Shown here in pieces: positions 4,338-48,943 of a stretch of DNA of 64,000 nt. The stretch lies in sequence record PZ171032.1; one strand, written 5' to 3'. The DNA is from a phage. Both the position numbers and the translations under genes were made by a program. Under the pieces are notes generated by a model that was not told the origin of the DNA, made no database searches, and was given only the letters and a program-made list of their open reading frames with translations. How positions within the stretch are numbered: the stretch's first letter is position 1; every line of letters begins with the position of its first letter.

Positions 4338-5051
4338 ATGCTGAATACTAAATTAATTGACAACCTGGAAAAACTATCCCAACCTGAAAACTACCTTTGG
4401 TCTGCCAACTGGGTGGAAAACTGGAACCGTGTGGCAGCTAAAGTGAAAAAATCATACACACCATTCGAATTACAGCTTAGCTTCATTGAGGAAGAGTTCA
4501 ATGAAGTTTTGGAAGAGCTGGAGAAAGGTGATGGTGGAGATCACCTGCTAAAGGAGGCCTGCGATCTTCACGTTGTCACAAGTTATGCAGCTTATCTTGT
4601 TAATGACAATCACGAAAAGTGGTCAAACCTGTTTGATAATCCACGAGGTCTTAAGTTCAAGATCGGTGAGTTCTATGACACACTGATCGCTGCGAAAAAC
4701 ACATCCAAGCAAAGAGCGTCAGCTTACCGTTTAGCGGAGTTGTCAACAGCTTTGCTGTTCCAGCTTAGCGGCGATGTGTGCGGGATGATGCGTAAGGTTC
4801 TCAAATCGAATGACAGCAAGTTTGCACGGGTCAACCATCTACGGTATTCACACGGTGCCAGTGCAGATATGCCTGCTGAACAACTCATAGAGTTGGAGAT
4901 TAAAGATCTTGAGCGACGCTTTGATGGTCGATATGAAGGTTTTGTTGCTAAGGAAGAATTCTACAACGGTAATAAAGTTATCATATTCCTTGACAGTAAA
5001 GGTAAGATCATGAAGCCTTCGAGCTTCAAGGATGTAGCAGAGTATATTTAA
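4338..5051 (+). CDS. MazG-like nucleotide pyrophosphohydrolase domain protein (tentative)
   Basis: Acidic helix pattern FIEEEFNEVLEELEKGDGGDHLLKEACD resembles the EExxE...E..D metal-binding signature of all-alpha NTP-PPases. Confidence 0.35.
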   Translation: MLNTKLIDNLEKLSQPENYLWSANWVENWNRVAAKVKKSYTPFELQLSFIEEEFNEVLEELEKGDGGDHLLKEACDLHVVTSYAAYLVNDNHEKWSNLFDNPRGLKFKIGEFYDTLIAAKNTSKQRASAYRLAELSTALLFQLSGDVCGMMRKVLKSNDSKFARVNHLRYSHGASADMPAEQLIELEIKDLERRFDGRYEGFVAKEEFYNGNKVIIFLDSKGKIMKPSSFKDVAEYI

Positions 5052-30480: not shown

Positions 30481-31010
30481 CAGGTATGCTTCTGATTAAC
30501 CGGGAAGACCTCTATGGGGACAAAGACCCTGTTGTGTTTGTTGATCGTAGGTGGAGATACACTGAAGAACAATTGGCGGCAAAAAATTTAACTGCAAAAC
30601 GCAGAAAGATCATCCAGTGCAAATACAAATACGCACAGTTTGCTGCAAAAGTGTCTCCACAAATCGAGAGCTTTGTGCTTAAATTGTATGACGAATACCT
30701 CAAATTCAAATTGGATTTTGTACAGGTATACCGTGCACAGATACGCCCAGATACCAACATATGTAGATGGAAGGTTGTTTGTGACGGTAAAGATTTGCCG
30801 CTCAGCTTGACAATTGAGCGGCGTTATGGATATCATGAGTGTGGTCTGTATGATATTTGGGATGTCATTGTAGATCCTGCTAAGTACCTGAACACAGAGG
30901 AGCTGGAATATATCAATAAGGTTATTCTAGATATGTTTTTCAACTACACCCGTGAAAACTCCGAGAAAGAACGAGATAATTTTCTTGACACCATCAGCAA
31001 CCATCTGTAG
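30477..31010 (+). CDS. hypothetical protein
   Basis: 177-aa ORF. Confidence 0.45.
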   Translation: MTGMLLINREDLYGDKDPVVFVDRRWRYTEEQLAAKNLTAKRRKIIQCKYKYAQFAAKVSPQIESFVLKLYDEYLKFKLDFVQVYRAQIRPDTNICRWKVVCDGKDLPLSLTIERRYGYHECGLYDIWDVIVDPAKYLNTEELEYINKVILDMFFNYTRENSEKERDNFLDTISNHL

Positions 31011-42594: not shown

Positions 42595-42843
42595 CCATGC
42601 CATTCGTTTGCATGACAATAATTATACATGACAATAATCGCACTGATTATAATTAGCATGACATAATATAAAAGCAGGGCAACTATTAGCAGATCTATAG
42701 TTGCCCTGCTTGTTATGTCATGATTAACTAAATACAAGGCAACTATGATCTGATTAATAGTTTGCAGACAAACTATCACGGGGGTGATGGTTACTGCTTT
42801 TATATTATGTCGCGACTCCGTCGCGCCATGCCATTCGTTTGCA
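42595..42843. repeat. direct repeat pair CCATGCCATTCGTTTGCAT (about 230 bp apart) flanking a perfect 14-bp-stem palindrome (42673-42710) and CATGACAATAAT repeats
   Basis: Read directly. Confidence 0.6.
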
Positions 42844-43454: not shown

Positions 43455-43486
43455 AGCAGACAAAAAGAAAGGGGCCTAAGCCCCTT
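43455..43486 (-). terminator. rho-independent terminator for the leftward block (AAGGGGC-ttag-GCCCCTT + TCTTTTTGTCTG on minus strand)
   Basis: Read directly, just downstream of the last minus-strand gene. Confidence 0.7.
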
Positions 43487-43770: not shown

Positions 43771-43833
43771 GATGTTTACCTCTTTATGGGGTTCTGGTTT
43801 GGTGTGGGCCTTTTGGCCCGTGTCATTATCTTA

Positions 43834-44653: not shown

Positions 44654-44918
44654 GGTTAACGGTTCACGTAAGTTTTCCCGTTTACGGTTATCGGCAGATC
44701 CTCCAGGTCTGGATCTTCTTTAAGGTCGCGAGCAAGTTCACCGCACCGAACGCCCTCGAATCCGTAGTACTCTGTCGTGCCATCCTGGAAAGTTTTAGCG
44801 GCAAGGCATAGGCGATAAGTAACACCGATTTGATTGACGGCATGGATATCAGTTAGATCTACCTCTTTTGCCAGCTTTTTGGCGCTTACAGGGCCAACCA
44901 GGGGCGCTATTCGTAGGA

Positions 44919-44950
44919 TAGAAATAAAAAGCCCCGCACAATGGCGGGGC
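44919..44950 (-). terminator. rho-independent terminator (minus strand GCCCCGC-cattgt-GCGGGGC + TTTTTATTTC)
   Basis: Read directly, immediately downstream of the 44959 gene stop. Confidence 0.8.
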
Positions 44951-44958
44951 GTTGGTTG

Positions 44959-45156
44959 TTATTTGTCTTTATGGCGGTATCGTTCTGCCTGTCGTTCACG
45001 TTCCAAAAGTAGGCCGGGCAATTTACGATCATAATGGTTACGCCAGATCTTCCCAAACCTTTTTGGCTTATTCAGTTTATTGTTACGCTGGCGGCGTTCT
45101 GGCAGCTCTTCGGAATCATGAGGGCGCTTTACAATTTTCTCGAAATTAATTTTCAT
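44959..45156 (-). CDS. small highly basic (Arg/Lys-rich) protein
   Basis: Start at MKINFEKIV behind AAGGGGGG; the track ORF starts 8 codons upstream. Confidence 0.45.
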   Translation of the reverse strand: MKINFEKIVKRPHDSEELPERRQRNNKLNKPKRFGKIWRNHYDRKLPGLLLERERQAERYRHKDK

Positions 45157-45517
45157 ATATTCCCCCCTTACTGATCTCAATATTTGCCTGAATCGCCCGG
45201 ATACGGCGCTTTATAACTTCCTGATCTGTGTGGTCGTATCCCCAAAAGTCCACAATTTTTGCGCCCCCCGCCTCCAGGCGGTATAGTGTTTCCTGCATTT
45301 TGTAAGCCGGGATCGGTCGCGGTGTTACTTGGTCACCTTCTTTATTTTTATACTTTATAATATAATCTTCGTTATCGTTGAATGTCCAAAATGGATATTC
45401 TGCAAGGGCGGCACTTCCTCTTTCCTTTTTGTCCTGGATCTTATTTACAATTAAAGCCGTAGCAATAGCGCCAATAATAAAACTTGCCCCGCTGATCATG
45501 TTACTTTCTCCTTTCAT
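45146..45517 (-). CDS. membrane-anchored hypothetical protein
   Basis: N-terminal TM ISGASFIIGAIATALIV; likely start at second Met behind AAAGGAG. Confidence 0.45.
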   Translation of the reverse strand: MKGESNMISGASFIIGAIATALIVNKIQDKKERGSAALAEYPFWTFNDNEDYIIKYKNKEGDQVTPRPIPAYKMQETLYRLEAGGAKIVDFWGYDHTDQEVIKRRIRAIQANIEISKGGIYEN

Positions 45518-45575
45518 TGTGTTGATAAACTATCTTTATAGATGGCCCTGCTACCAGGACCACCGAAAAAACAGT

Positions 45576-45821
45576 TTATTTGACGATACCGACAAAACAG
45601 ATCCCGCCTTCCCCTATATAGGCAATATCGGTAATTTTATAATTTGTCAAGATCCGCGTGTTCAGCTCATTAATAAAATCGGTCATCGCGTTGGTGTAGT
45701 TGTCTTCCGTATCTAAGGCATAATCCCAGGTGTAAACCTTTTTACGTCCGAAGCCTTTTACCATGATACGGGCGCTTTTGGTGTTAGTAGGGGCATAATA
45801 CTTGGTGATTAGTGCTGCCAT
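45576..45821 (-). CDS. hypothetical protein
   Basis: AAGGAG SD; 81 aa. Confidence 0.5.
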   Translation of the reverse strand: MAALITKYYAPTNTKSARIMVKGFGRKKVYTWDYALDTEDNYTNAMTDFINELNTRILTNYKITDIAYIGEGGICFVGIVK

Positions 45822-45862
45822 GGTTTTAACTCCTTTGCATTAGTTCAGTGTTAACAGTATAA

Positions 45863-45909
45863 AGTTTACTTTATTGATGGCCCTGGAGTCAAGGCCATCT
45901 AAAAATAAA
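45863..45909 (-). promoter_or_regulatory. conserved 47-nt intergenic cassette, copy 1: hairpin GATGGCC...GGCCATC with embedded minus-strand promoter TTGACT-18-TAAACT
   Basis: Identical except one base to copy 2; on the minus strand the -35 sits in the hairpin loop and the cassette begins 2 nt after the upstream stop codon. Confidence 0.5.
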
Positions 45910-45911
45910 TT

Positions 45912-46253
45912 TTACTCGTTTTCTTCCAGCTCTGAAAGCTCTTCTTTCACTTCTTCCAGCTCTGTCTGCAATTCCCGGTATTCTTCATCGTCCTCAATAT
46001 CCAGGCTGTCGATGTAGTCGCTAAATCCGCAGCGGTAAGCGATAGGATCTAACTCCTTGAGGATACGCGACGGAAGAAAAGAAATGTTTCCGATCATAAT
46101 TTCGCCGTAGATCTCGTCTAACCATTCATCATAGTTTTCGTCGTACTTGTCCTCGTCGATTTCAAAGTTATCGATCTTGTTCTCAAGGTCTGCGATCTGT
46201 TTTTTCAGCGCGGCGATCTGCATAGCTTTTTCTGCGGCGGTCATAGTAGTCAT
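45912..46253 (-). CDS. hypothetical acidic coiled-coil protein
   Basis: AAGGAG SD; 113 aa. Confidence 0.5.
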   Translation of the reverse strand: MTTMTAAEKAMQIAALKKQIADLENKIDNFEIDEDKYDENYDEWLDEIYGEIMIGNISFLPSRILKELDPIAYRCGFSDYIDSLDIEDDEEYRELQTELEEVKEELSELEENE

Positions 46254-46304
46254 GGTGTTTTCTCCTTTTGTGTGTTCTGGGAAGTTTTCCCGTTTACGTG
46301 TCTA

Positions 46305-46332
46305 AGTATACCGATTTGGGTTAGCTTGTCAA
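46305..46332 (-). promoter_or_regulatory. minus-strand sigma70-type promoter (TTGACA-16-TATACT), followed by AGACAC and a GGGAA-aac-TTCCC 5'-UTR hairpin
   Basis: Read directly on the reverse complement. Confidence 0.55.
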
Positions 46333-46452
46333 TTAAAAATTTAAGAAAAATTTTGCGACACCGTTGGCGCTACCCATCAACATTTGCGCCAGGATGTACC
46401 CAATGATGCAAACGATGATGGTTACCTTTGTGTGCTGGCGTGTAGTGCTCAT
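46333..46452 (-). CDS. small membrane peptide, 39 aa
   Basis: AAGGAGG SD; MSTTRQHTKVTIIVCIIGYILAQMLMGSANGVAKFFLNF. Confidence 0.4.
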   Translation of the reverse strand: MSTTRQHTKVTIIVCIIGYILAQMLMGSANGVAKFFLNF

Positions 46453-46483
46453 CTTCAAGCCTCCTTTTAGCCTAACTGAGATT

Positions 46484-46530
46484 AGTTTACTTTATTGATG
46501 GCCCTGGTGTCAAGGCCATCTAAAAATAAA
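46484..46530 (-). promoter_or_regulatory. conserved 47-nt intergenic cassette, copy 2 (hairpin with embedded TTGACA-18-TAAACT)
   Basis: See copy 1. Confidence 0.5.
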
Positions 46531-46531
46531 C

Positions 46532-46927
46532 TCAATAAGTTTTTAGTACTTTCCCGTCCAATCTGTCAAGCTGGATCTCGATAGCTGCAGAAAACCTATT
46601 GTAAACCACATCACCCAGGGAGTCCAGCCAATCTATGACGTTATATACCTGCTCTTTATTCTTGCAAGTCCGGATCCGTTTCATTACGTAAGACGGATCA
46701 ATATTAGCGCTCTCGTTGTTGTGGTCCTGCGCATGGCCTGCTGCGCTAGTTATAGATTTTACAACCACCTGAAAGGGCTTTAAGGTGCCTTTTGCGTTCA
46801 TCTCACGCGCTTTTGCTGCGCGGTTGTTATATGTTACACAACGGCGGCAAATGTTGACCAAATGCATATCAATAATTTTTTCATCGTTTGCCAGTTCGTT
46901 CATGATGCGGCGTACGTTCTTATTCAT
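46532..46927 (-). CDS. hypothetical protein
   Basis: 131-aa ORF. Confidence 0.5.
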   Translation of the reverse strand: MNKNVRRIMNELANDEKIIDMHLVNICRRCVTYNNRAAKAREMNAKGTLKPFQVVVKSITSAAGHAQDHNNESANIDPSYVMKRIRTCKNKEQVYNVIDWLDSLGDVVYNRFSAAIEIQLDRLDGKVLKTY

Positions 46928-46975
46928 GATCTTTTTCCTTTGTGCTGGCGGGAAACATTCCCGCCTTTTGTGTCT

Positions 46976-47003
46976 AGTTTACTTAAATTTTGCAGCGTGT
47001 CAA
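46976..47003 (-). promoter_or_regulatory. minus-strand sigma70-type promoter (TTGACA-16-TAAACT), followed by AGACAC and a GGCGGGAA-tgt-TTCCCGCC hairpin
   Basis: Read directly on the reverse complement; same architecture as 46305..46332. Confidence 0.55.
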
Positions 47004-47009
47004 TGATTT

Positions 47010-47408
47010 TTATTCGTGGGCGCATGTTACAATGTGTTTTTTATAGCCCAGGTGGTCAGCAAGTGCCGACAAAAACTCTTCTTCGTAGATCCAGCCGTCG
47101 GCAGTGATCCCCATAGCATTTAATGCGCTCTCAAGTGCTGCGTTAGCTTTATCGTAACCGTGACCGCTCGCCTTGCCGCCAGTATAACCGTACTTATTGT
47201 TCTTGTTGTCGTGAATCCAAAACACGCAGTAGTGAGTGTTCCCGCTGGCGGCGGCATAATACCGGATCTCAGCTACTTCGTGCAAATTATTGCCATCGTC
47301 CAGGCCAACCAGATTATAAGCCTTGTAGAATCCACGATCACGGCGGCAGTTCTTGACATCAGAAAAAGAAAAGTCCGCATTATCAAAATTAAAGGTAGTG
47401 GTTTTCAT
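47010..47408 (-). CDS. hypothetical protein
   Basis: 132-aa ORF. Confidence 0.5.
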   Translation of the reverse strand: MKTTTFNFDNADFSFSDVKNCRRDRGFYKAYNLVGLDDGNNLHEVAEIRYYAAASGNTHYCVFWIHDNKNNKYGYTGGKASGHGYDKANAALESALNAMGITADGWIYEEEFLSALADHLGYKKHIVTCAHE

Positions 47409-48360: not shown

Positions 48361-48459
48361 CTCGCATTTAATAAATTTAATTAGCACGCTAATTACCCTC
48401 CGTAACAATTTCCTATAAAATAGTATCCACTAAAATATTCCCATATAGAAATTTTAAAA

Positions 48460-48640
48460 ATCCATTTCTGAAAACGAAAAATCGATTTCGTCCCCAAAAA
48501 TTTCAGGTCGAGAGCCGGAACGATTTCCAGAAAATCCGATTCAGAAAACGAAAAACAGATCGAGTACTGAGAAATTTATCGAGAAAAATTTTCAGAAAAT
48601 TCAATCTTTGAAACGAAAAACAGATCGAGTACTTGGAAAG
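48460..48640. repeat. three degenerate tandem repeats of about 68 bp, each with GAAAACGAAAAA(C/T)AGATCGAGTACT core
   Basis: Read directly at about 48467, 48540 and 48607. Confidence 0.6.
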
Positions 48641-48943
48641 CTGCGCCACAACTTCAAGGTAGTGGTTGGATTATTACTATAAAAGGTCAAGGGTAAGTGG
48701 GGGAAGTTCTAGTAGAAGGGTGTGAGCATGTGCGGGAAATCTGTAATGGTGGTCTGGAATATGGTGCAGACGATAGGATGAGTGGTTCATCTCGTCGTGC
48801 CTGCTCTGAAAAATCCATTTTAGTTTTCGATCCATTTTCTGATTTTCTAAGGATTTTAAAATATCCTGGTAGGTAAAATATCAAAAGGAGGAAATCCATT
48901 TTAGAAATCCTCCTGATCTCTGGCAACCTGATAACTTAAAATA

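Follow-up and report, generated by a model that had tools for sequence, protein, structure and literature searches.

We have analysed a block of small genes in a 64,000-nucleotide stretch (the window) of the genome of a Vequintavirus, an rV5-like coliphage. The block is probably part of a variable early-gene region in which two repeated families of regulatory cassettes separate the small genes, much as the promoter-early stem-loop (PeSL) elements do in T4-like phages. The first family, with copies A, B and C in this genome and a further copy D in relatives, consists of one two-tier hairpin of 18-23 bp with sigma70 promoter elements lying within its bases. The second family comprises P194 and P192 (and P185 in relatives), in which a predicted sigma70 promoter is followed, about 4-9 nt past the start site, by a GC hairpin of the form GGCGGGAA-loop-TTCCCGCC or shorter. 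Phages of the rV5-like and phi92-like groups are widely used in E. coli phage therapy and biocontrol, and their early regions are annotated as one hypothetical protein after another; recognition of the cassettes gives concrete predicted transcript boundaries there.

The minus-strand block occupies 45.1-47.4 kb of the window, and the coordinates of its features are presented in Table 1. Phage Mangalyan shares 97.5% identity with the region, and nearly all of the 121 matching records are Vequintavirus. The proteins of all six small genes can be assigned only to PHROG families without a known function, and in Pfam they have no match above threshold. The early block shows large presence/absence differences among relatives. 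A search of 50,697 phage records for the cassette matched only Vequintavirus records and phage KKE7M. A host origin was rejected, as none of 5,426 complete E. coli genomes has a match, and so was membership of a family of known RNAs: when 43-49 kb was searched against Rfam by E-value, the only match was noise and lay elsewhere (E = 0.88). An IMG/VR pattern scan yielded mainly AT-rich chance matches, the only relevant ones being L018 and L022.

Table 1. Features of the small-gene block and its surroundings (coordinates of the window; promoters are predicted).
Feature	Coordinates	Strand	Remarks
Six small genes	47010-47408, 46532-46927, 46333-46452, 45912-46253, 45576-45821, 45146-45499	-	block 45146..47408
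Promoter P194	46976..47003	-	TTGACA-N16-TAAACT; sequence identical to rV5 P194
P194 leader hairpin	46947..46965	-	GGCGGGAA-tgt-TTCCCGCC; 8 bp, -14.6 kcal/mol, z -3.4
Cassette copy A	46484..46532	-	two-tier hairpin with sigma70 promoter; between ORF194-like and ORF193-like genes
Cassette A promoter	46513..46484	-	TTGACA-N18-TAAACT (promoter scan); -35 TTGACA 46508-46513, -10 TAAACT 46484-46489
Promoter P192	46305..46332	-	TTGACA-N16-TATACT; ortholog of rV5 P192; left boundary of KKE7M-shared module
P192 leader hairpin	46279..46291	-	GGGAA-aac-TTCCC; 5 bp, only -5.5 kcal/mol, z -2.0
621-bp repeat unit	45910..46530	-	copy A plus interval up to copy B; absent in magaca, ECP26, L022
Promoter-to-promoter module	45859..46333	-	P192, leader hairpin, 113-aa gene, cassette B
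Cassette copy B	45860..45914	-	copy A-type structure; between ORF192-like and ORF191-like genes
Cassette B promoter	45892..45863	-	TTGACT-N18-TAAACT (promoter scan); -35 TTGACT 45887-45892, -10 TAAACT 45863-45868
Cassette copy C (divergent)	45525..45579	-	between ORF191-like and ORF190-like genes
P192-type leader relic	44662..44686	-	CGTAAACGGGAAAACTT; 17 nt exact

A preliminary description of this DNA had recognised two near-identical 47-nt cassettes at 45863..45909 and 46484..46530. Their one-base difference is confirmed and lies in the sixth base of the -35 hexamer, TTGACA in copy A and TTGACT in copy B; shuffled sequence gave 0 cassette-pair matches of this kind. Each copy had been described as a GATGGCC...GGCCATC hairpin that holds the -35 hexamer in its loop and begins 2 nt after a stop codon. 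The hairpin is present, but its stem is longer than 7 bp: an upper stem of 10 bp closed by a 4-nt loop stands on a lower AU stem, formed where the T-run upstream pairs with AAAGTAAAC of the -10 region, which adds 8-13 bp. The -35 hexamer takes up the first three bases of the tetraloop and also the last three 5'-arm bases of the upper stem. The spacing of 2 nt holds for copy B, whereas copy A starts 1 nt past the stop codon, and the lower stem extends into the stop. In copy A the lower stem AGTTTATTTT/AAAGTAAACT leads through a 2x3 internal loop to the upper stem GATGGCCTTG/CAGGGCCATC (46497-46520) with the tetraloop ACAC, and the RNA folds at -26.4 kcal/mol (z -5.6). The outer lower stem of copy B takes in the upstream TAA stop; this copy folds at -24.1 kcal/mol (z -5.5), against only -19.5 for the plus strand. 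Copies A, B and D also have an AT-rich tract, TTTATTTTTA, at about -53 to -44.

The divergent third copy, previously placed near 45534-45561, was located as a repeat match at 45528-45587 and the core of its hairpin at 45541-45564. Its lower stem measures 13 bp and its upper stem, GGTGGTCCTG-gtag-CAGGGCCATC, 10 bp; the copy folds at -28.2 kcal/mol (z -6.1), which makes it the second most stable 60-nt sense-strand window in the 64 kb. Copy C carries CTGGTA in place of TTGACA and does not qualify as a consensus-like sigma70 promoter; it would be a weak promoter at best. Both the two-tier hairpin and the retention of the hairpin in copy C with loss of the -35 hexamer had been missed earlier.

The three copies fold at -24 to -28 kcal/mol (z -5.5 to -6.1), with 0 of 200 shuffles as good; when all 60-nt windows on the sense strand of the 64 kb are ranked by stability, they come 2nd, 7th and 17th. 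Pairing was analysed in 31 distinct cassette copies from 16 sequences, all 31 of which have the 10-bp upper stem, the 2x3 loop and a lower stem of 8-13 bp. Overall, 92.1% of the cells are paired, compared with 36-54% when the partners are slid. The upper stem is 99.7% paired; with the exception of one unpaired cell, each change in it affects one side only and leaves the bases paired (A-U to G-U, C-G to U-G, U-G to C-G, G-C to G-U); variation clusters in the 4-nt loop and avoids the stems. Six lower-stem pairs have changed on both sides, and the C of TAAACT changes together with the base that it pairs with in the lower stem, although one old split (copy C versus A/B/D) and two copy C haplotypes carry most of this covariation, so that it represents few independent events. 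The strands differ as well: mean fold energy is -23.5 kcal/mol for the sense strand and -14.6 for the antisense, and the sense fold is the stronger in 30 of the 31 copies. The compensatory changes by which copy C keeps both stems after the loss of TTGACA, and the stronger fold of the sense strand, are evidence that the hairpin structure is selected. Across the genome, 38 promoter regions are no more structured than 60 coding controls (mean z -0.46 versus -0.40, p = 0.6); the association with a hairpin is thus a property of these cassettes and not a rule of the genome. A second, non-homologous site with a -35 in a hairpin loop (30797-30836, plus strand) falls within a 177-aa ORF and probably arose by chance.

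As duplex DNA, the cassette would act as a sigma70 promoter, with a T-rich UP-like tract, the -35 TTGACA/T, an 18-nt spacer and the -10 TAAACT. The hairpin would form only in RNA produced by read-through transcription from the upstream gene. There it may make or protect the 3' end of the upstream message, the candidate routes being RNase III-type cleavage at the internal loop, a block to 3' exonucleases, or attenuation; transcription of the next gene would then begin afresh from the promoter within the cassette. From this anatomy we infer promoter activity as well as the fate of the RNA and the enzyme that would act on it; the RNA role we favour would be to form 3' ends on read-through transcripts or to have them processed in the manner of RNase III.

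A sharper version of this explanation, possible in our judgement although well short of probable, is that RNase III of the host would cut the hairpin once; the upstream message would then end in the upper stem-loop, which would protect it, and the small genes of a read-through transcript would be parted from one another, as happens in the early region of T7. E. coli RNase III substrates are typically two helical turns long, and internal loops limit the enzyme to one bond, leaving protective 3' hairpins (PMC1540722). By that standard (about two turns, with an optional internal loop) the helix is suitable in all 31 copies: 18-23 bp, with an asymmetric internal loop that is conserved and an upper stem closed by a tetraloop, in an element that is intergenic, lacks a U-tract and forms only where RNA is made by read-through. 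Against this, the lower stem is rich in AU and GU pairs and is only 8 bp long in some copy B variants, and no Rfam family matches. The T7 early-region sites of the R1.1 type are likewise intergenic hairpins: they lie among small early genes, are about two turns long and contain an internal loop, and in both cases the upstream mRNA is predicted to end, after processing, in a hairpin that protects it (PMC1540722). They differ in having no promoter, whereas here hairpin and sigma70 promoter share bases; the internal loop here is smaller (2x3), and cleavage here is a prediction. More tentatively, and with more doubt than belief, we suggest that this sequence of about 50 nt has three functions: sigma70 promoter, hairpin for RNase III-type processing or 3' protection, and portable crossover site. 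If this were true, the cassette would link the ending of one small-gene message with a fresh start for the following one and would move promoter-bounded modules within and between subfamilies (Vequintavirinae to Stephanstirmvirinae). A true RNA role would also make the promoter and the structured RNA signal, held in shared bases, a case of compact dual coding.

The cassettes had been described as combined terminator-promoter modules that insulate each small gene. A promoter and a conserved stem-loop do follow directly on the upstream stop codon, but the hairpin does not have the form of a classical intrinsic terminator, since there is no U-tract after it on either strand: it is followed by AAUAAAGUAAACU (in RNA, AAUAAAG... 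or UAUAAAG...), and the T-run lies upstream. A GC-rich hairpin of this stability 1-2 nt past a stop codon would suit termination, and the stem-loop of a T4-type PeSL reduced downstream lacZ about as much as the rrnB T1 terminator. The terminator scan, however, calls the cassette hairpin on neither strand, although it calls true terminators nearby (e.g. 44931-44950), and the annotators of EdH4 and Alma made no such call either. A terminator as the function of this hairpin is therefore unlikely.

It is more improbable that the inverted repeat is a DNA operator, at which a dimeric phage or host protein would bind across the -35 and shut off the early promoters. The 7-bp repeat around the -35 is perfect and its arms are invariant in copies A, B and D; copy C, however, breaks the DNA palindrome (GGTGGTC versus GGCCATC) and keeps the RNA pairing through G-U. 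Moreover, the fold is far better in one strand, the T-run and the -10 flanks covary as a stem, the half-sites lie 17 bp apart from centre to centre, a distance that does not correspond to full turns of the helix, and PHROG and Pfam comparison identified no DNA-binding protein among the genes neighbouring the cassettes. Scarcely any better is the suggestion that the repeats are a by-product of recent local duplication of a gene with its promoter, the hairpin having no function of its own. The near identity of copies A, B and D and the restriction of the cassette to one genus plus one recent transfer agree with this, but the genes flanking the copies are unrelated, so what is repeated is the cassette and not a gene unit; and, as noted above, the old, diverged copy C holds both stems by compensatory changes without its promoter, while substitutions spare stems and accumulate in the loop.

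The four sites listed in Table 1 are supported, by their sequences, as predicted sigma70-type promoters ahead of individual small genes. Promoters had been reported at these minus-strand sites, and they are good matches: 9-11 of 12 positions agree with the sigma70 consensus, the orientation is that of the genes, and leaders of 31-51 nt run to a ribosome-binding site and ATG. The surrounding 15-kb region has 52 promoter-like sites, compared with 29.8 +/- 5.8 in shuffles. Two of the four are already published, since the promoter list for rV5 (Kropinski et al. 2013, PMC3606486, Table S4) predicts P194, identical to the sequence here, and the ortholog of P192, with P195 and P195A just upstream. 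That list is without the cassette promoters although rV5 carries copies A, B and D, and it leaves hairpins and repeats unmentioned. P194 is invariant across 13 genomes except for one spacer base. The literature searched yielded no transcript or start-site data for Vequintavirus.

The further claim, that TTGACA-N16-18-TA(A/T)ACT plus AGACAC marks a distinct class of promoters, which might serve a phage-modified RNA polymerase, does not hold and is very improbable: six consecutive minus-strand promoters at 45.8-47.8 kb do have C at the fifth -10 position, which is rare elsewhere in the window, but neither the ...ACT form of the -10 nor AGACAC is conserved. Among the Vequintavirus relatives read, the P192 -10 is TATACT in 6 and TATAAT in 7 (the latter in rV5, EdH4, V18, JEP1 and others), the imported P192 of KKE7M also has TATACT, copy D and KKE7M have TAAATT as a -10, and AGACAC appears as AATCAC, AGGCAC, ATACAC or ATGCAC. 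The authors of the rV5 study saw consensus sigma70 promoters throughout that genome and suggested that the polymerase might go unmodified (PMC3606486).

Cassettes and promoters are also recombination junctions, which the preliminary description did not remark on. The 621-bp repeat unit has undergone clean deletion in at least three lineages: in magaca, ECP26 and the metagenomic contig L022 it is replaced by a single chimeric cassette, with the upstream flank of copy A and the downstream flank of copy B. The upstream flank of magaca is 100% identical to that of the undeleted EdH4, that of ECP26 is 96.5% identical to the undeleted rV5, and that of L022 is at most 93.5% identical to any compared sequence; these three different haplotypes argue for independent deletion events in the three lineages. 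With the inter-copy interval as query, about 6 of the 121 cassette-bearing records were found to be without it. The copies also show concerted evolution within genomes: both phiWec193 copies have the rare variant TTTATTTTCA, both JeffSchatz copies have ATTATTTTTA and TTGACTT, and copies B and D of rV5 have an ACTT loop in common. Being repeated, the cassettes would serve as short recombination homologies and would give rise to gene conversion, to deletion of intervening genes and to exchange of promoter-bounded modules. They were rejected as the cause of some other indels of this early block, namely the rV5_ev146 deletion and the loss of a 4.7-kb accessory block in the window, both of which used unrelated microhomologies.

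An exchange of this kind is seen in KKE7M, a Justusliebigvirus (phi92-like, of another subfamily), in which the 475 bp of the promoter-to-promoter module are 96.6% identical to the window. The 113-aa protein of the module is an acidic coiled-coil protein of unknown function, and PD114, a relative of KKE7M, has a different gene at this position. Each junction lies within promoter sequence that donor and recipient share, at TTGACAAG.TAAC..AAATC on the left and at AATAAAGTAAA on the right. Module exchange thus appears to have reached across subfamilies, from Vequintavirinae to Stephanstirmvirinae, in a recent transfer. The cassettes would explain the loss, homogenisation and exchange of small accessory genes, with junctions, including those of this inter-subfamily transfer, that can be read to the base.

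PeSLs have been described in the T4-like phages RB49/phi1, T4/PST and KVP40/nt-1 as a sigma70 promoter with an AT-rich upstream tract and a stem-loop in any of five positions, among them overlap of the -35 or a place shortly after the -10; such elements border genes without a known function in hyperplastic regions and bring about indels (Arbiol et al. 2010, PMC2839356; Comeau et al. 2014, PMC4122927). The best reading of the present elements, which are known here from sequence alone, is that they are PeSL-like promoter/stem-loop elements. Copies A and B, P194 and P192 are repeated intergenic sigma70-like promoters (copy C is not), and AT-rich tracts lie upstream of the -35 in copies A, B and D and in P194 (AAAAATCA) and P192 (AAATTTTTAA). 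In the cassettes the stem-loop lies over the -35 and -10, and at P194 and P192 it follows the -10; the region is hyperplastic, and the flanking genes are of unknown function. As with PeSLs, close relatives differ by element-bounded deletions and replacements, namely the A-B deletion in magaca, ECP26 and L022 and the difference between KKE7M and PD114. The elements here belong to another subfamily (Vequintavirinae, with one Stephanstirmvirinae recipient) rather than to T4-like myoviruses, and have no sequence similarity to PeSLs; given this host and the restriction of cassette matches to Vequintavirus and KKE7M, the cassette would be analogous to PeSLs and not homologous. Also unlike PeSLs, which have a short polyG/polyC stem and occur in dozens of copies, the cassette has its entire promoter, with -10 and T-tract, folded into the two-tier hairpin and occurs in 3-4 copies per genome. 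The idea that regulatory cassettes are recombination sites is thereby extended beyond T4-like phages, which suggests a general solution by which shuffled genes stay expressed.

In the second family, both leader hairpins reported earlier are present; the P194 stem is of 8 bp and not 5, and the accompanying AGACAC is, as described above, variable. The P194 hairpin starts about 4-5 nt past the predicted start site and has a T-run on the plus strand only, and two GenBank records label it 'terminator', a label for a 5'-leader hairpin that recognition of the cassettes corrects. Stem-loops of the ompA type at the 5' terminus stabilise E. coli mRNAs. The hairpins of P194, P192 and P185 are similarly GC-rich and only a few nt from the predicted 5' end, and may act as 5'-end stabilisers of the transcript, although the predicted 5' overhang of 4-9 nt is longer than would be ideal for protection. 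A relic of a P192-type leader, without a promoter, is found just upstream of a 44-aa ORF. The P192 hairpin itself is weak, yet it is invariant in every genome with the P192 module.

The 2-kb stretch around the cassettes is 94-97.5% identical to 121 phage records, nearly all of them Vequintavirus (rV5-like myoviruses), including a set labelled 'Campylobacter phage' that is Vequintavirus by record taxonomy. The 17 records so titled (MG0656xx, e.g. L035; host C. jejuni, chicken) share 94-96% identity with E. coli Vequintavirus genomes, with an UNVERIFIED flag on at least one; probably these are coliphages, mislabelled or present as contaminants. Genes of the window lie on the plus strand up to ~43.4 kb and on the minus strand beyond, and the cassette region is part of the minus-strand block, matching rV5 ORF190-195. 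The only PHROG matches of the six proteins encoded at 45.1-47.4 kb are to families without a known function, and a Pfam search with the same six gave no match above threshold. The best-supported reading of the cassettes, ~50-nt repeats with a sigma70 promoter inside a two-tier hairpin, is that of a regulatory and recombination cassette like the promoter-early stem-loops (PeSLs) of T4-like phages, with predicted promoter activity and a predicted RNA role.

Features of the window; stability ranks are among all 60-nt windows of the sense strand over 64 kb
Feature	Coordinates	Strand	Remarks
Cassette copy A	46484..46532	-	-26.4 kcal/mol, rank 7
Cassette copy B	45860..45914	-	-24.1 kcal/mol, rank 17
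Cassette copy C	45528-45587	-	-28.2 kcal/mol, rank 2
621-bp unit	45910..46530	-	copy A and interval up to copy B
Promoter P194	47003..46976	-	leader hairpin
Promoter P192	46332..46305	-	leader hairpin
P192-leader relic	44662-44686		17 nt, without promoter
Segment found in KKE7M	45859-46333
Deletion in rV5_ev146	46441-46940		500 bp
Accessory-block junction	44874-44892		block of ~4.7 kb absent
Truncated ORF	44688-44843		51 aa
Called terminator	44931-44950	both
Called terminator	43469-43486
Hairpin in minus-strand block	43800-43825		T-run on plus strand
Hairpin in minus-strand block	46947-46965		T-run on plus strand
Tandem array	1-64
ORF-poor stretch	48400-48900		~450 bp
57-nt repeats (three)	48444-48639
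Most stable local hairpin	42661-42720	+	-28.8 kcal/mol

Copies A and B lie where the preliminary description placed them and differ, as it noted, by one base in 47 nt, where no such repeat is expected by chance; its divergent third copy was also recovered. On the sense strand, a lower stem of 8-13 bp joins the T-run upstream, TTTATTTT, to AAAGTAAA(C), which is part of the spacer and -10. A 2x3 internal loop separates this stem from the upper one, GATGGCCTTG/CAGGGCCATC, whose 10 bp include one U-G pair and which is capped by a loop of 4 nt; the top of its 5' arm and this loop contain the -35 hexamer. The z-scores of the three folds range from -5.5 to -6.1. In a gap-free alignment of 31 distinct copies (14 phage genomes, two metagenomic contigs), 92.1% of the pairing cells are paired; sliding the 3' partners by 1-3 columns lowers this to 36-54%. 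In the lower stem, six pairs are changed on both sides (e.g. U-A/C-G, A-U/U-A and G-C/A-U); these double changes trace mainly to the ancient separation of copy C from the other copies, and also to two copy C haplotypes, and represent few independent events. The upper stem is 99.7% paired, with a single unpaired cell, and its other changes are one-sided and keep the pairing (A-U to G-U, C-G to U-G, U-G to C-G, G-C to G-U). Within a copy type most variation falls in the 4-nt loop, which is ACAC, ACTC or ACTT in copies A, B and D (the last found in relatives) and GTAG, GTTG, GCTG or GTAA in copy C. Wobble pairs function in the sense strand only, and the mean fold energy is -23.5 kcal/mol for sense versus -14.6 for antisense, the sense fold being stabler in 30 of the 31 copies and the asymmetry strongest in copy C (-27.5 versus -10.9). 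Copy C has the full hairpin, but carries CTGGTA where TTGACA stands elsewhere, and its best -10 is GATAGT or GATAAT; thus the structure is kept without a good promoter. Its retention argues for a role of the hairpin itself, whether in RNA of the sense strand or in the same strand as single-stranded DNA.

The cassettes had been proposed to combine terminator and promoter. The promoter and stem-loop parts of that proposal stand, but the hairpin is not a classical terminator: it is followed by AAUAAAG or UAUAAAG rather than a U-tract, with the T-run on the wrong side, and a terminator scan that called the real terminators nearby did not call the cassettes. Because transcripts of the embedded promoter start downstream of the hairpin, it would form only in read-through RNA from the upstream gene. 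Its dimensions (about two helical turns plus an internal loop) fit general reactivity features of substrates of the E. coli enzyme RNase III, whose internal loops confine cleavage to a single bond, with a protective hairpin left at the 3' end (PMC1540722). This match leads us to favour, by inference, formation or protection of the 3' end of the upstream message, possibly via RNase III, over intrinsic termination.

All four promoter-like sites first noted were recovered by a consensus scan (9-11 of 12 matches), and each lies 31-51 nt ahead of the ribosome-binding site and start codon of a small ORF. Among the 33 sigma70 promoters predicted in the rV5 genome paper (PMC3606486), P194 (...TTGACACGCTGCAAAATTTAAGTAAACT AGACACAA) is identical to the corresponding window site, and P192 is the ortholog of the other leader-hairpin promoter. 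The cassette promoters are absent from that list, though rV5 carries cassettes; our literature search found no start-site or transcriptome study for any Vequintavirus. The suggestion of a distinct promoter class does not hold. The P192 -10 is polymorphic among the Vequintavirus genomes read (TATACT in six, TATAAT in seven; TATACT in the copy imported by phage KKE7M), and promoters in other parts of the window have ordinary -10 variants. The cassette -10 is TAAACT, versus TAAATT in copy D and in the KKE7M cassette, and this C/T covaries with its G/A partner in the lower stem, so that, at least in cassettes, the C reflects base pairing and not a special -10. The AGACAC start motif is variable as well, the P194 start region reading AGACAC, AATCAC, AGGCAC, ATACAC or ATGCAC in relatives beside an unchanged hairpin.

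Both leader hairpins are present, although the stem at P194 has 8 bp (GGCGGGAA/TTCCCGCC; -14.6 kcal/mol, z -3.4) and not 5; that at P192 is weak (-5.5 kcal/mol, z -2.0). P194, P192 and P185, a similar promoter of relatives, share a TA(A/T)ACT or TATAAT -10, a CA-rich start region and a hairpin (GGC)GGGAA-loop-TTCCC(GCC); on sequence grounds, leader hairpins and their promoters are a second repeated module. The stems are invariant. In JeffSchatz (L032 ~4604-4622) the P185 leader loop is reverse-complemented, from GGCGGGAA-AAC-TTCCCGCC to GGCGGGAA-GTT-TTCCCGCC, and in the P194 leader of O157 typing phage 4 (L036 ~2073-2090) loop TGT has become ACA, the reverse complement with a 1-nt deletion. 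Such flips are the signature of quasi-palindrome template switching and hint at hairpin formation in DNA; in the leaders, structure rather than loop sequence is evidently kept. At the same position phi92-like phages have unrelated GC hairpins, GGGCGGCA-ctat-TGCCGCCC and GGCGGTGG-aatag-CCCACCGCC. Assuming a start 6-9 nt past the -10, the leader hairpins begin ~4-9 nt from the predicted 5' end, and from general knowledge of E. coli mRNA decay we infer that they stabilise 5' ends. None of them is a sense-strand terminator; the P194 hairpin is listed as a gene-strand terminator in two GenBank records, and its T-run is on the opposite strand only. Two hairpins of the minus-strand block with plus-strand T-runs (see table) would terminate only antisense transcription entering from the convergent plus-strand unit.

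Cassettes are restricted to Vequintavirus records (~350 places, 121 records) and one Justusliebigvirus; a search of E. coli genomes found none. In addition to copies A, B and C, most genomes possess a fourth, D, within an accessory block (between ORF179 and ORF178 in rV5). Concerted evolution, deletion and transfer between subfamilies show exchange at the cassettes, which are recombination sites. Rare variants are common to both or all copies of one genome: copies A and B both carry TTTATTTTCA in phiWec193, ATTATTTTTA plus TTGACTT in JeffSchatz and CTTATTTTTA in V18, and rV5 copies B and D both have the ACTT loop. In 8 of 11 genomes the two copies compared (A/B, or an AB chimera or B with D) agree in their loop allele. 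The 621-bp unit is missing from magaca, ECP26 and metagenomic contig L022, each of which has a single cassette with the upstream flank of copy A and the downstream flank of copy B; the interval between copies is absent from about 6 of the 121 cassette-bearing records. The upstream flanks of these deletion forms represent three haplotypes (magaca 100% identical to undeleted EdH4, ECP26 96.5% to undeleted rV5, L022 at most 93.5% to any compared sequence), and across the cassette the nearest relative changes in ECP26 and L022, which implies an origin by repeated events or by crossovers at the cassette. The ~4.7-kb accessory block missing from the window's phage is present in L022 (1254-5992); corresponding regions hold copy D in A12a and rV5, and a P185-type promoter in EdH4, Alma, magaca and JeffSchatz. 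Its junction has CCCTGGTTG microhomology and truncates a signal-peptide protein gene, of which a short ORF remains. The rV5_ev146 deletion (L003 2473-2482) removes the ORF194 homolog and cassette A, and is bounded by two CGCCAGCACA(C)AAAGG copies, in the P194 leader and inside a 39-aa gene.

The phi92-like phage KKE7M (Stephanstirmvirinae, Justusliebigvirus) carries one segment of the window at 96.6% identity and no other part of the region. A 2.7-kb query across the site is covered to 82-84% by more than 50 relatives of KKE7M, a coverage that fits absence of the module from them; in one, PD114, a different 216-nt gene occupies the slot. The left junction falls within a promoter common to donor and recipient (TTGACAAGATAACTAAAATC in PD114 and KKE7M versus TTGACAAGCTAAC..AAATC in Vequintavirus) and the right in AATAAAGTAAA, the cassette's end, which PD114 also has, ahead of a gp235 homolog. 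Since both junctions lie within shared promoter/cassette sequence, the mobile unit starts at the -35 of a promoter and ends at the -10 of the following one. PD114 (L031 1522-1549) and window P192 have a near-identical promoter core, TTGACAAG.TAAC..AAATC.GTA.A.T, before unrelated genes; from this comparison, promoter modules seem to be common currency of the phi92-like and Vequintavirus subfamilies.

The closest described system is the PeSL, a repeated intergenic element. It joins an early sigma70 promoter of consensus type, with an AT-rich tract ahead of it, to a stem-loop that may overlie the -35 and -10, lie between them, precede the -35 or come directly after the -10 (PMC2839356; PMC4122927). 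PeSLs cluster around genes of unknown function in hyperplastic regions, and the published work shows that they form mini-circles and cause indels and the replacement of genes (PMC2839356; PMC4122927). The Vequintavirus cassettes have all the sequence-level defining features of PeSLs. They belong to another subfamily and have no homology with the PeSLs of T4-type phages, from which they differ in structure mainly by the embedding of the whole promoter in one covarying two-tier hairpin. In a literature search, the term 'PeSL' came up in four papers, and none of them concerned rV5-like phages.

Three other features of the window are recorded here. At its start, in the divergent promoter region separating the two big transcription units, the 21-nt unit TAGTGTCCGTATCACGGACAG occurs three times in perfect tandem repetition, and each copy holds the inverted repeat GTCCGT-atc-ACGGAC; this array, cut off by the window's edge, could be iterons or an operator array. 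The ORF-poor stretch, with its 57-nt repeats and recurrent GGATTTT and TTTTCGTTTTC motifs, is a candidate for an origin of replication or a region of non-coding RNA; it is without annotation in the EdH4 and Alma records, and its sole Rfam match is noise (E = 0.88). The window's most stable local hairpin has a 22-bp stem (AAAGCAGGGCAACTAT...ATAGTTGCCCTGCTT), followed by only a weak T-run, near the end of the plus-strand gene block.
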